Part shown: piece after piece, positions 49,209-54,877 of the stretch | Position numbering within the stretch: the stretch's first letter is position 1 | Layout of the letters: each line of letters starts with the position of its first letter | Assembly: GCA_963848135.1 (NCBI GenBank) | Contig: CAWKCK010000003.1 | Span: forward strand, 124,001 to 188,000 | From: an uncultured delta proteobacterium | Lineage (GTDB): Bacteria > Desulfobacterota > Desulfobacteria > Desulfobacterales > SG8-13 | DNA: 64,000 nucleotides | Direction: 5' to 3' | Program-made: the position numbers and the translations under genes | The notes under the pieces: generated by a model | What the model was told of the DNA's origin: nothing | Seen by the model: the letters and a program-made list of their open reading frames with translations, nothing else | Database searches by the model: none

Positions 49209-49241
49209 AAAAAAATACCCGGCCATTCAATGACCGGGTAT
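49209..49241 (-). terminator. Intrinsic terminator ending the F0 operon (possibly bidirectional)
   Basis: Minus strand ATACCCGGTCA-TTGAA-TGGCCGGGTAT followed by a T-run. Confidence 0.75.
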
Positions 49242-49261: not shown

Positions 49262-49852
49262 TTAATCGGTCCCCGCCCGTGCCATGTAGCGCTGCAGCAG
49301 TTTCTGATTGTCCTCCGCCGTAACGATACCGGGTAATTTTTCCAAGGCAAGATCGGCAGCGGTATCGATCATCTCTGCGCGCAAGGTGCTTTGAGCCTGA
49401 CGGAGCCGCCCCGCGATCTTTCGCTTGGCATTCGCCATGATAATTTTGCTCTCTTGATGGGCTTCGTTGATTATCTCCTGTTTACGTCGTTCTCCCATCT
49501 TAACGATCCGCTCTCTAACTTCATCCAATCGACCCGAATTATCTTCAAGATCCTTTTCAGCTTGCCGGACACGCTGGACCAGTTGGTTTTTCTCTTCTTC
49601 GAGATTCTGTATTTTAAGTGATATTTCTTTTCCTTTTCCGGATAGAAAGTTCTTCAACGGCAGGCGGGCGAACTTGACAATCACAAAGACCAGGATAGCA
49701 AAGTTGACCCAACGCATGACCAGATCGTAGGTAGGCCTCCAGCCTCCGCTGCTCTCGGCGGCAAAAACCTCTAACACTCCGGAGAAAAAAACGAGAAGAG
49801 TAATTGAGACAACAATCCCCGTCAGGTGACGACATCTCTTCTTGCACGTCAT
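49262..49852 (-). CDS. atpF: ATP synthase F0 subunit b
   Basis: RWVNFAILVFVIVKFARLPLKNFL followed by a long coiled coil. Confidence 0.88.
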   Translation of the reverse strand: MTCKKRCRHLTGIVVSITLLVFFSGVLEVFAAESSGGWRPTYDLVMRWVNFAILVFVIVKFARLPLKNFLSGKGKEISLKIQNLEEEKNQLVQRVRQAEKDLEDNSGRLDEVRERIVKMGERRKQEIINEAHQESKIIMANAKRKIAGRLRQAQSTLRAEMIDTAADLALEKLPGIVTAEDNQKLLQRYMARAGTD

Positions 49853-50304
49853 GATGTGAGCCTCCGCTCCAGCAGTTTTTCCATCATTCCAACGGCAAGC
49901 GATTGGGCTTCTTTTTGTACCGACTTTCTGGCTTCGGCAACGAGTGCCGTAACCTGCTGGCGGTCTTCTTGCGACAGTTTTTCCACTTCGCGCCGGACAG
50001 CGTTAACGATTCCGTCCGCTTCCTGCTTACCGGATCCTTCAATTTTCTCCCGGATTTCATGGGCCTCGCGAATGACTTCGGTTTCCTGCTTTTTTAACCG
50101 TTTCATCAAGCGCACTATCTTTTTCTCAGCCTCCGTGGCATCATCCTGGATATTTTGGATGTGGCCCTCCCTTTCCTGAACCACACTGCGCAGCGGCTGG
50201 ATCATGACCCGGTTGATGATGTACAGAAAAATCAGAAAAGATATCAATTGAATGATGAGGGTCTCATTGATACTGATCAATGCAATGTTGCTGATGATCT
50301 GCAT
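49849..50304 (-). CDS. ATP synthase F0 subunit b'
   Basis: INETLIIQLISFLIFLYIINRVMIQPL...ERE, then a coiled coil. Confidence 0.88.
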   Translation of the reverse strand: MQIISNIALISINETLIIQLISFLIFLYIINRVMIQPLRSVVQEREGHIQNIQDDATEAEKKIVRLMKRLKKQETEVIREAHEIREKIEGSGKQEADGIVNAVRREVEKLSQEDRQQVTALVAEARKSVQKEAQSLAVGMMEKLLERRLTS

Positions 50305-50516
50305 AGCATCCGTCCAAAATATAATACGGCCCAGTTTACCCGCCGAGAACGATCACGCACCATGGCCAATGATGGTTTCATGACCGCCAGCGAAGAAATT
50401 AAACCCGTCAAAGGTGTCGCTATACGCCGAACCCGCCGCAGGGTCATCCCCAATGCGATCGAGTCACCCTTTTTTAATTCAGGCCCTTGCGTAGCGTATG
50501 GATATATTTAGTCCGT

Positions 50517-50765
50517 TTAAACGACAAACAGAAGCAGGAGCGCAATGACCAGAGAATAAATTCCCGTTGACTCCGAAACCGCCTGTCCCACCAGCATGGT
50601 ACGCGTCAGCAAACCGGCTTCCTGGGGATTTTTTCCGATGGCTTCACATGCTTTGGCAGCCACCATCCCTTCCCCGACACCGGGACCGATTGCTCCAAGC
50701 CCCATGGAAATTCCAGCACCGATGAATGCTGCTGCTTTTACGAGATCTGCACCTTCGATTGCCAT
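50517..50765 (-). CDS. atpE: ATP synthase F0 subunit c, Na+-type signature
   Basis: Glycine zipper GPGVGEG, KNP loop, AVSESTGIY (E-S-T-x-x-Y); strong CAGGAGG RBS. Confidence 0.95.
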   Translation of the reverse strand: MAIEGADLVKAAAFIGAGISMGLGAIGPGVGEGMVAAKACEAIGKNPQEAGLLTRTMLVGQAVSESTGIYSLVIALLLLFVV

Positions 50766-50891
50766 TTTATGTACCTCCTGAAAGCGACAAAATTAGATTG
50801 ACCGTCTACTTTGAAATTATTGATTCAGCCGCCGCTGTCCCGGTCGCGAAATCGATGCTTCGCAGTGTCAAACAGAGCGGGGTTTTCAATT

Positions 50892-51866
50892 TTAAAGCAC
50901 AAAAATGAGAACCAGGCTTATCACCATGGCATAAATAGCGGTGGATTGAGACACAGCTTGCCCCACAAGCATGGTCCGCATTAAATCACCGGCCCGTGAC
51001 GTATTTCTGGCAACCCATTTTACGGCACCCTCGGCAGCCATCCCGTTACCGATACCGGGACCGATACCTCCCAGGCCAGTGCATAAACCGGCAGACAGCA
51101 ATGCCATGGACGCACTGAGCGCCTGGGATTCTGGAAAGGCCTTGAAAAGCAGGATGAAGCTAACCAAAAGGCCGAAAATAGATGGTGTCTGGGCCACGGC
51201 CTGACCCACCAGCATGGTGGTGGTGACATTGGCAACCGATTCCGGGTTTCGGGCGATTCCATCACAGCTGACACCTGCCGCCATGCCGCCACCGTAACCG
51301 GACCCGATTGCCGCCAGACCGGTACTCAGGCCCGCGCCAATCAAGGCCGCCCATGTCGGAAATAATGGTGAGCTACTGAAATCCATGAAGATCAACATCA
51401 ACGCCACCACCATGGAAAAGATTGCGGGCGTCTGGCACACGGCCGACCCGATCAGCATATTGGTGGTCAGACGGGAACCTATGGCCGGCTGGCGTGAAAT
51501 CCCCAGGCAACACTGGCCGCCCGGAAATCCTGATCCGATACCGGATCCTATGGCGCCAAAACCCATGCTGAGGCCGGATCCGAACAGGGCGGCCGCCTTC
51601 AGCGGTGTCGCACCGGGAGCATCGAGAAAAAGAAGCAAAATAGCAATCACCAGAGCGAAGATAGACGCGGATTCCGCCACTGCCTGGCCCACCAACATAT
51701 TTTTGAAAATATCACCGGAAATCTTCGGATTGCGGGATACTGCCAGGTTGGCCTGAGCGGCGGTGTACCCTTCACCAATAGCCGCACCGATGGCTCCGAG
51801 ACCCATCGCAATTCCACCGCCGACGAAGGCACTCAACTGTACGATTGTTTGTACGTCAAACTGCAT
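50892..51866 (-). CDS. atpE: Quadruplicated ATP synthase subunit c (four hairpins, eight TM helices)
   Basis: Four ~81-aa repeats, each with a glycine zipper, an R-[NQ]-[PT] loop and ML[VI]G[QS]AV-x-[EQ]. Confidence 0.92.
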   Translation of the reverse strand: MQFDVQTIVQLSAFVGGGIAMGLGAIGAAIGEGYTAAQANLAVSRNPKISGDIFKNMLVGQAVAESASIFALVIAILLLFLDAPGATPLKAAALFGSGLSMGFGAIGSGIGSGFPGGQCCLGISRQPAIGSRLTTNMLIGSAVCQTPAIFSMVVALMLIFMDFSSSPLFPTWAALIGAGLSTGLAAIGSGYGGGMAAGVSCDGIARNPESVANVTTTMLVGQAVAQTPSIFGLLVSFILLFKAFPESQALSASMALLSAGLCTGLGGIGPGIGNGMAAEGAVKWVARNTSRAGDLMRTMLVGQAVSQSTAIYAMVISLVLIFVL

Positions 51867-51869
51867 ATT

Positions 51870-52544
51870 CTACTTCACCTGTACGGAAATGTAGACCACA
51901 GTGAGCATGGTAAACACAAATGCCTGTATTGTTCCGACAAAAAGGCCGAAGAACCCGTTTAGGAAAGGGGGTAATATGATACTGTAGCTCAAATAAGATA
52001 CCACCAGGATGATGATGGAGCCGCCCATAATATTTCCAAAGAGCCGGAATGAAATCGAAATAATCTTTGCAAGCTCACCGATAAGATTAAGAGGCATCAT
52101 AAAGAAAATCGGTTGAAAGTATTCCTTGGCGTAGTTTTTGAACCCTTTGCTCTTGATGCCGGCATAGTGGGCAATTACGAAGCCCATAAGACCTAAACTC
52201 AGCGGGGTGTTCAGATCTTTGGTTGGTTCTTCGAGATGGGGAATGATTCCCAGCCAGTTGGAAAGCAAAAGAAACATGAAGAGCGCGCAGACCATCGGAC
52301 CGTACTTCCGGGCCTTTTCCCTGTCGAGGGCATCCTCGGTCAATTTGTAGAACTGCTCCACAAAAATTTCTCCCAAGACCTGAAGTGGTTGGGGGACGAT
52401 TTCTTTTTTTCGGGCAGCAGACATACCGAAAATAATGAGGAAAGTGATAACGATCCATGTCATAATGATCACATCCAGGTTCAGTGTGATCGTGTAGCCG
52501 AATACAGGTATGATCAGCTGATGGACAAGCCCAAGTTCACCCAT
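51870..52544 (-). CDS. atpB: ATP synthase F0 subunit a
   Basis: PTKDLN, SISFRLFGNI (essential Arg), IQAFVFTMLT. Confidence 0.95.
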   Translation of the reverse strand: MGELGLVHQLIIPVFGYTITLNLDVIIMTWIVITFLIIFGMSAARKKEIVPQPLQVLGEIFVEQFYKLTEDALDREKARKYGPMVCALFMFLLLSNWLGIIPHLEEPTKDLNTPLSLGLMGFVIAHYAGIKSKGFKNYAKEYFQPIFFMMPLNLIGELAKIISISFRLFGNIMGGSIIILVVSYLSYSIILPPFLNGFFGLFVGTIQAFVFTMLTVVYISVQVK

Positions 52545-52557
52545 GAAAGGTTTTCCC

Positions 52558-52944
52558 TCACGAAACTTTATTTGGAATGACGTGAATATATTTGCAGAAA
52601 TGCTCTGCAAGGATAACGAATTGCACCATGAAGATACCGGTGATCGTCGTCGCCAGATGAAACTGCTCAAATTTGACAGCGACAACCAGTGGAATCGCCA
52701 GAATGAGGTAGCGGATAAACATAGAGGACATAGAAAGCACAAATGTTTTTCTGCTCGACCGGCCGAACTTGAGCGGCAGCGTCTCACCCATAAGGACGAA
52801 ATTGATCACGCTGAACAGCGTCCCCAGAACGAGTCCTTTTCCTAAGGCTGTTTGTCCGGTGAAGATAATAACGAGGGCAATAATTACAGCCGTCGCCATG
52901 GCTCGGGAACCGTATTTTTTCTGTGTCGCCCTAATCGATTCCAT
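52558..52944 (-). CDS. atpI: ATP synthase protein I
   Basis: Four TM segments, GTLFSVINF, IRY motif; immediately before atpB. Confidence 0.85.
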   Translation of the reverse strand: MESIRATQKKYGSRAMATAVIIALVIIFTGQTALGKGLVLGTLFSVINFVLMGETLPLKFGRSSRKTFVLSMSSMFIRYLILAIPLVVAVKFEQFHLATTITGIFMVQFVILAEHFCKYIHVIPNKVS

Positions 52945-53206
52945 TATCCCGCCCTTTTTCCTCCTTTTCCTTGACGTCCTTGTCTCGAACGATCTCCATG
53001 ATTTGCCGGTAGGCCACATTCCCACCGCCAATGATACCCAGGATGGTAAAGACAGCGATGAAGATCCCCCTGGTGCCTAACCACTGATCAAGTTTGTAGC
53101 CGATAAAAAAACAGAAGGCGATACAACCGACCATTGTCAATCCGAGTTGCATGACAATCGTCAGGTGTTCGGCCCATGAACGGTTTTTTTTGTAATTAAT
53201 GACCAT
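52931..53206 (-). CDS. atpZ: AtpZ/AtpI (gene 1) family protein
   Basis: GYKLDQWLGT...LGIIGG motif, first gene of the operon. Confidence 0.85.
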   Translation of the reverse strand: MVINYKKNRSWAEHLTIVMQLGLTMVGCIAFCFFIGYKLDQWLGTRGIFIAVFTILGIIGGGNVAYRQIMEIVRDKDVKEKEEKGRDNGID

Positions 53207-53506
53207 TAAATCGCTCCGGCGGCGGAGCGGACCTTACCGCGGATTTACCGAAGCAAAGTTGATAACACACAAGAAAAAAAATGCAACCGTTAATTATGTT
53301 TATATTGCTAATTAAATAACAAATATTGTTCAGTTTTTATATTCAGTTCAAATTTCACGAAAACTAAATGACGCCCAAGGATCTCACGCTGCATGGATAG
53401 GTACCATCAGATGAGATCAAAAGAGTGTTGAAATTTCACTGCGTAGCCGCTACGATATTGAGTAGAATTTTCGGGTAAACCAATTTTCTTCACAGGAGAT
53501 GTAAAA

Positions 53507-54118
53507 ATGGCAGTCATAACGATCTCCAGGCAGTTCGGGGCCGGTGGATTAACTCTGGGCAAAAGAATCGCCAAACGACTCGACTATTCATTTTTCGACA
53601 GCGAGATCATCCAGATGGTCGCTCAGCAGGCGAAAGTATCAACCCGTTGGGTGGAATCCATGGAAAAGGAAGCCGGAGGGAAACTGGAACGTCTAATTTC
53701 AGGCCTGGTTTCGAAAAGTTTCATTGATCGCTTACTGGACGACCGCCGGGGCTATATTGATGAAGAAATTTATGTCGACCTGCTTGGCAAGATCATCAAA
53801 AAGATTGCCGAAGATGGCAACGCAGTCATTCTCGGCCGGGGTAGTCAGTATATCCTCAAAGATTATGATCGTGTTTTTCACACCCTTCTGGTTGCCGACA
53901 AGGAATACCGCATAAAGTTCATAGAGGAAAAATACGATCTGTTCACCAAACACGCAATCCAGACCGTCAACAATGAAGACAAACGCAGGATTAACCTATA
54001 CCGCAAATTCGGAAAGGGGGACTACGACAACTGGTCCCACTATCATCTGGTTCTCAACATGAGCCGCGTCGACTTGGACATGGCGGAGAATCTCGCTTGC
54101 CGGCTGGTACAACAGTGA
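53507..54118 (+). CDS. Cytidylate kinase-like family protein
   Basis: VITISRQFGAGG, VILGRGSQYIL, YHLVLN. Confidence 0.85.
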   Translation: MAVITISRQFGAGGLTLGKRIAKRLDYSFFDSEIIQMVAQQAKVSTRWVESMEKEAGGKLERLISGLVSKSFIDRLLDDRRGYIDEEIYVDLLGKIIKKIAEDGNAVILGRGSQYILKDYDRVFHTLLVADKEYRIKFIEEKYDLFTKHAIQTVNNEDKRRINLYRKFGKGDYDNWSHYHLVLNMSRVDLDMAENLACRLVQQ

Positions 54119-54266: not shown

Positions 54267-54877
54267 TCAGGAATTGACCGTGTCCAAAACGAGTTTAACC
54301 GCCTTTTGCATGTCCAGTTTTCCCATATTCAAAACCAGGTGGTAAAGGGCGGGGTTGTCATAATCGGTCTTGCCTATTTTTTTGTAAAGGTTGGTCCTTC
54401 GTTTTTCTTCCCGATTGACGACCTGAACCGCGCGGCTTTCCGATAAATCGTATTGCTCCATCATAAATTTTACACGGTTTTCGAATTCATTGATCAACAG
54501 GATATGGCATGCATCGGGGTGGTCATGCAGAATGTACTGGCTGCCCCGACCGAGAATGACTGCGTTTCCTTCTTCAGCAATTTGCGCGATAATGACCACC
54601 AGATAGTCCAGATAGAGTCTTTCATCGATATAACCGCGCTCATCTTTGAGTATCCGATCCACCAATCGCTTTGAAACCATGCTGGTTATGGCCCTGGAAA
54701 TCTTGCCGCCGGCTTCCCTTTCAACCGATTCGACCCAGTGGGGGAAACATTGGCCGCTTCAGCAACCATCTGAATAATGTCATCATCGGCAAAAGTGTAA
54801 CCCAGTTTATCGGCAACCATTTTCCCGAGAGTTTTTCCTCCTGCGCCAAACTGTCTTGATATGGTGATTACCGCCAT
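54267..54877 (-). CDS. Cytidylate kinase-like family protein, paralog (frameshift in a C-run near 54742)
   Basis: Adding one C gives NVSPHWVESVEREAGGKISRAITSMVSK, collinear with the 53507 paralog. Confidence 0.85.

Follow-up and report, generated by a model that had tools for sequence, protein, structure and literature searches.

A fused four-hairpin subunit c with one ion-binding glutamate in a candidate second Fo operon of Desulfobacterales

In a rotary ATP synthase, the number of ion sites on the rotor determines the ion-to-ATP ratio, and, to our knowledge, the only studied bacterial way to lower this ratio inside an F-type enzyme is the two-hairpin subunit c1 of Acetobacterium woodii. How far such a reduction can be taken is the question raised by a 64,000-nucleotide stretch of DNA from an uncultured member of the Desulfobacterales (GenBank assembly GCA_963848135.1, contig CAWKCK010000003.1, positions 124,001 to 188,000), to which we refer as the window. 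It encodes a 324-residue fusion of four F-type subunit c hairpins, here called c4, of which only the first contains the ion-binding glutamate, and directly behind it a normal Na+-type subunit c of 82 residues. A preliminary description had proposed that both proteins join in a hybrid Na+ ring in which each copy of the fusion removes three ion sites. Our analysis supports that proposal in part, and it adds an aspect on which the description was silent, namely that the two genes belong to an operon without F1 genes, a second membrane motor beside an ordinary one. The reading that we favour, and that we consider fairly probable, is a second Fo in which the 82-residue c and c4 form a mixed Na+ ring and which shares the F1 of the ordinary motor.

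The two rotor genes are the following, with the expectation values (E) of their profile matches:

50892..51866, minus strand: c4, fusion of four F-type c hairpins with eight helices, 324 amino acids; PF00137, E 3.7e-59, in four stretches
50517..50765, minus strand: c, one hairpin with E32, E65, S66, T67 and Y70, 82 amino acids; PF00137, E 2.4e-18

The four repeats and their coordinates had thus been described correctly, the quoted segments (AVAESASIF, AVCQTPAIF, AVAQTPSIF and AVSQSTAIY in the fusion, GVGEG...ESTGIY in the small subunit) are present in the translations, and the profile for ATP-synt_C, which had been suggested as a check, matches both proteins far beyond chance. The four hairpins of c4 were aligned with the 82-residue c to transfer the numbering of the Ilyobacter subunit, and positions 32, 65, 66, 67 and 70 were compared:

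Hairpin 1 of c4 (R1): E E S A F
Hairpin 2 of c4 (R2): S Q T P F
Hairpin 3 of c4 (R3): G Q T P F
Hairpin 4 of c4 (R4): N Q S T Y
82-residue c: E E S T Y

The alignment agrees with the earlier observation that the carboxylate and the helix-1 glutamate are confined to the first repeat and S-T-x-x-Y to the last. Whereas the 82-residue c has the carboxylate that is expected in each hairpin of an F-type subunit c, c4 departs from this rule, with Glu in R1 alone and Gln in R2 to R4. The full Na+ set (Q/E32, E65, S/T66, T67 and Y70) is found within one subunit in the 82-residue c; in c4 it is complete only across subunit borders, with E32/E65 in R1 and S66/T67/Y70 in R4. The combination E32/E65/S66/T67/Y70 is identical with the Na+ site with two carboxylates that is known from the structure of the Fusobacterium nucleatum ring, in which Ser66 and Val63 belong to the adjacent subunit (accessible text of PMC3692424). 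That Na+ sites are shared between neighbouring hairpins, as the preliminary description had stated, is borne out by the figure legends of PMC2359735: in Ilyobacter tartaricus, Glu65 and Gln32 of subunit A are joined by Ser66, the Val63 carbonyl and Tyr70 of subunit B, and in NtpK of Enterococcus hirae, Glu139 and Gln110 of the second hairpin are joined by Thr64, Leu61 and Tyr68 of the first. From these legends it follows that the partner half comes from the preceding hairpin. Covariation among 107 informative cluster representatives, whose counts are descriptive and carry no test statistic because the sequences are related, fits such a pairing of the Glu half of hairpin i+1 with the Ser/Tyr half of hairpin i. 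A degenerate S/T-T-Y half precedes 140 of 141 carboxylate-less hairpins and a carboxylate follows a full half in five of six cases; with the opposite pairing direction, a carboxylate would lie opposite a full half in only 16 of 50 cases. Under the preceding-hairpin rule the arrangement of c4 makes sense, as its sole Glu half forms the N-terminal edge and its sole full Ser/Thr/Tyr half the C-terminal edge, which are the places where other subunits supply the partners, and the three internal interfaces consist of Gln and degenerate halves. The pairing direction and the covariation count thus support the half-site logic that had been proposed, in which the end repeats would complete sites with neighbouring subunits and the internal interfaces would be silent.

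This pattern is strongly conserved among close relatives. A word-indexed protein search with c4 returned 2414 proteins at E <= 0.001 among 8000 scored, and the best 120 of these 2414 were parsed with a hairpin profile together with the two window proteins (122 in total), to which the following counts refer. E-Q-Q-Q is present in all 56 four-hairpin proteins (55 homologs and the query), and the accompanying halves read SAF-TPF-TPF-STY in 55 of them. Five-hairpin proteins have E-Q-Q-Q-Q in 49 of 50 cases and end with S-T-Y in all 50, and 13 of the 15 six-hairpin proteins have one Glu followed by five Gln; the rule for the two end hairpins also applies to these longer relatives. In an alignment of 36 c4 sequences with identities down to 44%, there are 52 invariant columns, among them E32, E65, S308, T309 and Y312, and the loop Arg/Pro residues of hairpins 1 to 3 (R45/P47, R125/P127 and R206/P208) are conserved to at least 90%, as expected for hairpins that face the central stalk. 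For the small c, E32/E65/S66/T67/Y70 is invariant in 17 of 17 aligned orthologs of the order. In 20 loci fetched from different families of the order, the partner c always has E-E-S-T-Y, in agreement with the complete Na+ set assigned to it before, and always follows the fusion directly; the carboxylate pattern of the fusion is E-Q-Q-Q in 12, E-Q-Q-E in seven and E-Q-E-E in one. The conservation of E/Q/Q/Q and a terminal STxxY, which the preliminary description had named as a check, is therefore found throughout the close four-hairpin proteins, and it does not extend to all distant loci. The fusion is also widespread: 18 of 20 genomes of the family have a c4 match at E <= 1e-20, and a multi-hairpin c match at E <= 1e-35 was obtained in 185 of 301 sampled genomes of the order, representing 102 of 147 genera.

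An AlphaFold2 model of c4, computed from the 36-sequence alignment, consists of eight helices (predicted local distance difference test, pLDDT, 95.4; predicted template modelling score, pTM, 0.91). Its best solved fold match is A. woodii c1 (4bem_J), with a root-mean-square deviation of 1.4 A over 166 columns and a target template modelling score (TM-score) of 0.84, and the same chain is the best sequence match of c4 in the PDB (E 3e-22); the solved chains reach query TM-scores of 0.48 or less and span at best about half of the model. The best PDB sequence matches of the 82-residue c are 4bem_J, 4bem_A, 1yce and 3zk1. The F/V-hybrid Na+ ring of A. woodii (PDB 4BEM) with its two-hairpin, one-site c1, which had been cited as the precedent, is indeed documented in the available parts of PMC7911925 and PMC9171764: the ring comprises nine one-hairpin c subunits and one c1 (PMC9171764), and c1 of A. 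woodii and Clostridium aceticum reads Q..ET in hairpin 1 and Q..QT in hairpin 2 (PMC7911925). The likeness extends to the gene arrangement, as the fused c of both acetogens is likewise encoded in an F-type operon, flanked by a and a normal c of the Na+ type, and in A. woodii, too, Glu occupies the first hairpin and Gln the later one. In contrast to c1, which has two hairpins in about 180 residues and one silent place, c4 has four hairpins in 324 residues (five or six in relatives) and at least three silent places in a row; its site has the two carboxylates E32/E65 instead of Q..ET, and its operon is F1-less and encodes a second Fo beside an ordinary one. As judged from the genes, the c4 operon would encode a hybrid rotor of the A. 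woodii type, apparently extended to at least three silent places and positioned on a second membrane motor.

The evidence for such a second motor comes from gene content. The operon comprises seven minus-strand genes in the order AtpZ-AtpI-a-c4-c-b'-b, and the partners of c4 and c are all F-type in profile searches (PF00119, PF00430 twice, PF03899 and PF09527). No alpha, beta, gamma or epsilon gene adjoins it, neither in the window nor in any of the 20 related loci, all of which have the same seven genes in the same order (in L033 the b' frame given by the open reading frame caller is over-long, and in L022 a lies in two frames). The window genome, a draft of 18 contigs that is 98.65% complete, contains two a genes, c genes at two loci and one gamma match. 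The other a/c locus of this genome lies on contig 17 and has the ordinary arrangement AtpZ-AtpI-a-c, with a 93-residue c (Q32, E65, S66, L67 and Y70), and no b gene lies beside it. The sole alpha/beta pair is located on contig 18 in the operon b'-b-delta-alpha-gamma-beta-epsilon, which thus provides its own b' and b; a third PF00006 match, on contig 4, is FliI within a flagellar cluster. The window set shares 37% identity with the other set in a, 24% in b and about 24% over 51 residues in b' (b and b' being compared with those of the F1 operon), and judged by these values the two Fo sets are old paralogs or of different origin. Four closed genomes with the fusion (G282, G308, G133 and G093) likewise have two a and one gamma match each. 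Of five closed or nearly closed genomes that lack the fusion, two contain one a and one c, another two contain two a with two gamma matches, and the fifth, G072, contains two a with one gamma. From its gene content, the window operon can be regarded as a second, complete Fo that has no F1 of its own. As such an F1-less operon occurs together with one F1 operon in the genome, we infer that the window motor docks to the same F1 as the ordinary a/c/b/b' set, and two membrane motors seem to share one F1. In the closed genome G072 itself (C1:2561282-2562487), which has no multi-hairpin match, the second a and a second small c lie about 430 bases apart; this locus may represent a second Fo without a fused c, or one in which the fused c was lost or shortened.

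Based on these data, we propose the following mechanism. The 82-residue c, with its full two-carboxylate Na+ site, would be the main building block of the rotor ring, and c4 would, by analogy with A. woodii, most likely enter a ring built mainly of this subunit, filling four neighbouring hairpin places and bringing one carboxylate. R1 of c4 would give the Glu32/Glu65 half, to be completed by the Val63 carbonyl, Ser66, Thr67 and Tyr70 of the preceding c or of the last hairpin of another c4, and R4 would give its Ser/Thr/Tyr half to the Glu of the subunit that follows. Inside c4, the three interfaces would carry no ion, with Gln in place of Glu and degenerate partners. As each c4 occupies four places and contributes one site, a ring with N hairpins in total, k copies of c4 included, would have N-3k sites. 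For N = 11, as in the closest solved rings, the number of sites would fall to 8 with one c4, lowering the ratio from 3.7 to about 2.7 Na+ per ATP, and to 5 with two copies. The small c has an AGGAGG 8 nt upstream of its ATG; the start of c4 lies 3 nt past the stop of a and has a weak ribosome-binding site. The mean column identity is 94% for the small c (17 orthologs of the order) versus 75% for c4. The strong and weak ribosome-binding sites and the higher conservation of c are in keeping with a ring in which c predominates over c4, which we take as a hint.

Which other roles could c4 have, and does the evidence favour them? The small c and c4 might form separate homo-oligomeric rings, one all-c and one all-c4 (for example three copies with 12 hairpins and 3 sites), so that the gear would lie in the choice of the ring. 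This is compatible with the motifs, as two adjacent c4 copies would form a complete site from the full S-T-Y of R4 and E32/E65 of R1. Nevertheless, we consider separate rings unlikely: in A. woodii, the sole studied precedent, c1 is mixed with c2/3 in one ring (PDB 4BEM; as stated in the available text of PMC9171764), c directly follows c4 in all 20 loci, and about one ion per ATP, as in an all-c4 ring, could hardly suffice for ATP synthesis. It is slightly less likely still that the motor is real and the coupling ion is H+ or promiscuous, so that the motif-based assignment of Na+ would be wrong. The ion is read from five residues, and some c subunits with part of the Na+ set do use H+ according to passages of PMC2359735; against this, the 82-residue c has the whole Na+ set of F. 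nucleatum as given in the accessible portion of PMC3692424, invariant in its aligned orthologs, and the solved structures closest to it (4bem, 1yce and 3zk1) all belong to Na+ rings.

A function of c4 outside the rotor, whether as a scaffold for assembly or as a plug or regulator of the ring, or altogether outside the ATP synthase, appears improbable to us. The AtpI-type assembly factor encoded in the same operon indicates that ring assembly is assisted and is the nearest point in favour of such a role, albeit an indirect one; however, all four hairpins keep the c fold in the model as well as the glycine packing motifs, hairpins 1 to 3 keep the loop Arg/Pro residues, the end hairpins keep exactly those residues that would complete sites with neighbours, and the closest relative, c1, is a ring member (4BEM). 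Finally, the loss of three of four carboxylates could be seen as the mark of a decaying duplicate without function. We reject this explanation, whose probability we regard as very close to nil, as it is contradicted by the conservation: the frame is intact, the fusion recurs in most of the sampled genera, each hairpin class is conserved across lineages, and the invariant columns of the c4 alignment are numerous.

Several observations weigh against the preferred reading of a mixed Na+ ring on a shared F1. With regard to F1, a fourth PF00006 match of the window genome lies on contig 9 in a 420-residue frame, the genome is a draft, so that a second F1 could sit in a gap, and the closed fusion carrier G062 has three a and two gamma matches. 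The one-site pattern is not universal, as later hairpins have Glu as well (hairpin 4, or 3 and 4) at 8 of the 20 distant loci; in three of these eight, the preceding half is T-P-L and not a full Na+ half. The R4 and R1 halves would also allow rings of c4 only. The ion ratios given above are illustrations on an assumed ring size, and a silent arc that spans four places, or 131 degrees if the ring has 11, is longer than the 120-degree step of F1 and would be mechanically awkward for ATP synthesis. Moreover, c4 is known here from genes, and its placement in a ring with c, the number of copies per ring, the ion and the role as an adjustable gear or pump, as suggested in the preliminary description, are proposed by analogy with A. 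woodii. In a marine-sediment metatranscriptome (X20), contigs 90-98% alike to parts of c, c4, a and the upstream genes cover 21 of 30 bins; these contigs give neither level nor strand, uncovered parts are uninformative, and as they come from relatives and DNA is possible in such a library, they are a weak hint at expression. Taken as a whole, the interpretation of the preliminary description is partly supported, as far as sequence reaches, and the assembled ring lies beyond that: genes, motifs, conservation, operon, gene counts and fold are observed, and the mixed ring, Na+ as its ion, the shared F1, the ratio and the direction are inferred.

The weakest step of our proposal is the direction in which the motor works. 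We lean very slightly towards a Na+ pump of the V-ATPase kind that is driven by ATP, or a motor adapted to a large Na+ gradient, over the main ATP synthase. Pumping is suggested by the presence of an ordinary Fo that is already available for synthesis, by the lower number of sites, which corresponds to the V-ATPase design, and by the consideration that a silent arc longer than one 120-degree step would give no torque in the synthesis direction. ATP synthesis, on the other hand, is suggested by the acetogens, in which such hybrid rings make ATP (available text of PMC9171764), by the assignment of Rnf to the core genome of the Desulfobacteraceae in the accessible part of PMC11887813, and by the Na+ gradient, which per ion can probably exceed the proton gradient in sea water. 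A bolder and considerably less secure extension, which we offer tentatively, would be that most of the order runs one F1 on two interchangeable motors, one ordinary and one Na+-driven with silent blocks of 3-5 places, as a stepwise gearbox that evolves by copying of silent hairpins, reaching about 2-3 Na+ per ATP and perhaps giving a V-ATPase-like pump made of F-type parts.

This kind of fusion carries the principle of c1 considerably further, to an uninterrupted run of three to five silent places. Among marine sulfate reducers it is common in one major group, and its separate motor appears to use the same F1 as an ordinary motor. Should the mixed ring be true, the natural series from 2 to 6 hairpins would show which length of a silent arc is tolerated, it would test whether such rings still make ATP or only pump, and it would bear on the question of how the ion cost is matched to the driving force near the thermodynamic limit in high-Na+ water. 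The named matches among the best 120 are Desulfosarcina and Desulfobacterales or Thermodesulfobacteriota genomes; as Desulfosarcina names are among them, cultured carriers exist, and the question is therefore directly testable.

Other rotary ATPases share single features with this system. The 82-residue c resembles the subunit of the F. nucleatum c11 ring (3ZK1) in having E32/E65/S66/T67/Y70, and this ring and the I. tartaricus c11 ring (1YCE) are among its best PDB matches. Both rings consist of a single kind of one-hairpin subunit, in contrast to the fused partner present here. We know of no fused c partner for either of them. N-type ATPase operons, too, add a second rotary ATPase to the ordinary enzyme, and they include an AtpZ/AtpI-like gene and a c subunit of the Na+ type; unlike the window operon, they also encode F1-like proteins of their own. 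Assignment to the N-type was rejected, since no F1 genes lie next to the operon in the window or the 20 loci and the genome has one gamma; the N-ATPase is described as a separate atp operon in the available part of PMC5376962. In V/A-type proteolipids, hairpin fusion and site loss also lead to fewer ions per turn according to the accessible sections of PMC9171764 and PMC2359735. They have 1, 2, 3 or 13 hairpins (PMC9171764), with two in E. hirae NtpK and eukaryotic c and 2, 3 or 13 in archaea, and they match the fold of the c4 model with target TM-scores of about 0.8. The site of NtpK lies within one polypeptide, whereas the only site of c4 would be completed by a neighbouring subunit, and c4 was rejected as a V/A-type proteolipid on account of its F-type neighbours a, b, b', AtpI and AtpZ. 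In the literature covered by our search, we found no description of an F-type c with three to six hairpins and none of a second, F1-less Fo operon in these bacteria; Matthies 2014 and Brandt and Mueller 2015 lay outside this scope and could bear on this result. One supplementary file of PMC11887813 contains no AtpE or AtpB entry, and its other supplements may list such proteins. Two to four atpE copies are mentioned for Desulfatiglans relatives in the accessible text of PMC13343851, and PMC9586324 names none of the residues that were looked for in it.

How did the fusion evolve? Hairpins of the same class are 0.67-0.71 identical across lineages, as compared to 0.40-0.48 between classes, and this higher identity within classes indicates that the four-hairpin build is old and predates the sampled lineages. 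A FastTree phylogeny of the hairpins did not give clean splits for R1 to R3, and the identity table was used instead. In six proteins with five or six hairpins, the extra hairpins are copies of the silent hairpin 2, with a neighbour identity of 0.71-0.77 versus about 0.4-0.5 elsewhere. Since these relatives add silent copies, it would be the number of silent places that evolves. Within the genus of the window genome, the frames over c4 matches of 89-91% identity span 325, 393, 441 or 483 residues, which are upper bounds and not gene lengths; close relatives within one genus thus seem to differ in their number of hairpins (4 to 6).

A scan of cluster representatives revealed further multi-hairpin proteins. 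Of 1.84 billion representatives, 1651 matched at E <= 0.001 and 98 at E <= 1e-30, and the best 150 of the 1651 include forms with 2, 3, 4, 5, 7, 8, 10, 12 and 14 hairpins. The longest, P0155, P0187, P0246, P0231 and P0190, have 14, 12, 10, 8 and 7 c hairpins per polypeptide (1139, 968, 784, 631 and 524 residues), and nearly every hairpin keeps its Glu; such a chain amounts to an entire rotor ring or half of one, comparable to the 13-hairpin Methanopyrus protein. A second four-hairpin family of about 45 representatives (among them P0265, P0271 and P0272; about 315-323 residues) is about 30% identical to c4 and reads E-Q-E-D at position 65, typically QETAL-SQTPF-LETPF-SDTFY, and thus has three carboxylates and one silent hairpin. 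In the closed genome G133 (C1:928645-930601), the gene order is c4-a-c, with the PF00119 match in between, versus a-c4-c in the window and the 20 loci. A look-up in the ESM Atlas returned the same family and phylum again, and close relatives of the operon are present in the DNA of two sediment metagenomes (X1 and X2).

The remaining elements of the operon are listed here from upstream to downstream:

53293..53322, minus strand: weak sigma-70-like promoter match (9/12, consensus scan) upstream of the AtpZ-like gene
52931..53206, minus strand: AtpZ-like small membrane protein (ATPase_gene1); PF09527, E 3.6e-15
52558..53031, minus strand: AtpI-like protein; PF03899, E 3.9e-09; start uncertain, the listed frame overlaps the upstream gene
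51870..52544, minus strand: subunit a, 224 residues from ATG, with the arginine motif SFRLFGN; PF00119, E 4.9e-52
49849..50304, minus strand: subunit b', 151 residues; PF00430, E 8.5e-17
49262..49852, minus strand: subunit b, 196 residues, with a 4-nt overlap with the end of b'; PF00430, E 3.3e-14
49215..49241, minus strand: terminator-like hairpin directly 3' of b, 12 pairs and a T run (pattern match, consensus scan)

The open frame of subunit a extends to a GTG at 52787, and the PF00119 match covers residues 107-301 of this long frame; a length of 224 residues is found in 16 of the 20 related loci and agrees with the ATG at 52544. The hairpin at 49215..49241 is likely the end of the operon, and the next gene lies on the opposite strand; the number of promoter- or terminator-like sites in the region is not above that in shuffled sequences. 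Between the small c and b' there is a gap of 212 bases (50305-50516), in which the consensus scan found no terminator-like site on the minus strand, while a/c4 and b'/b nearly touch or overlap; the gap could set the ratio of c to the stator subunits. Upstream of the operon, an open reading frame of 203 residues beginning MAVITISRQFGAGG lies on the plus strand (53507-54118), and a divergently oriented paralog follows on the minus strand (54267-54877). The latter appears to be split into frames of 63 residues (54686-54877) and 137 residues (54267-54680); it shares the N-terminal motif, resembles the 203-residue frame in its C-terminal part, and may be a frameshifted copy.

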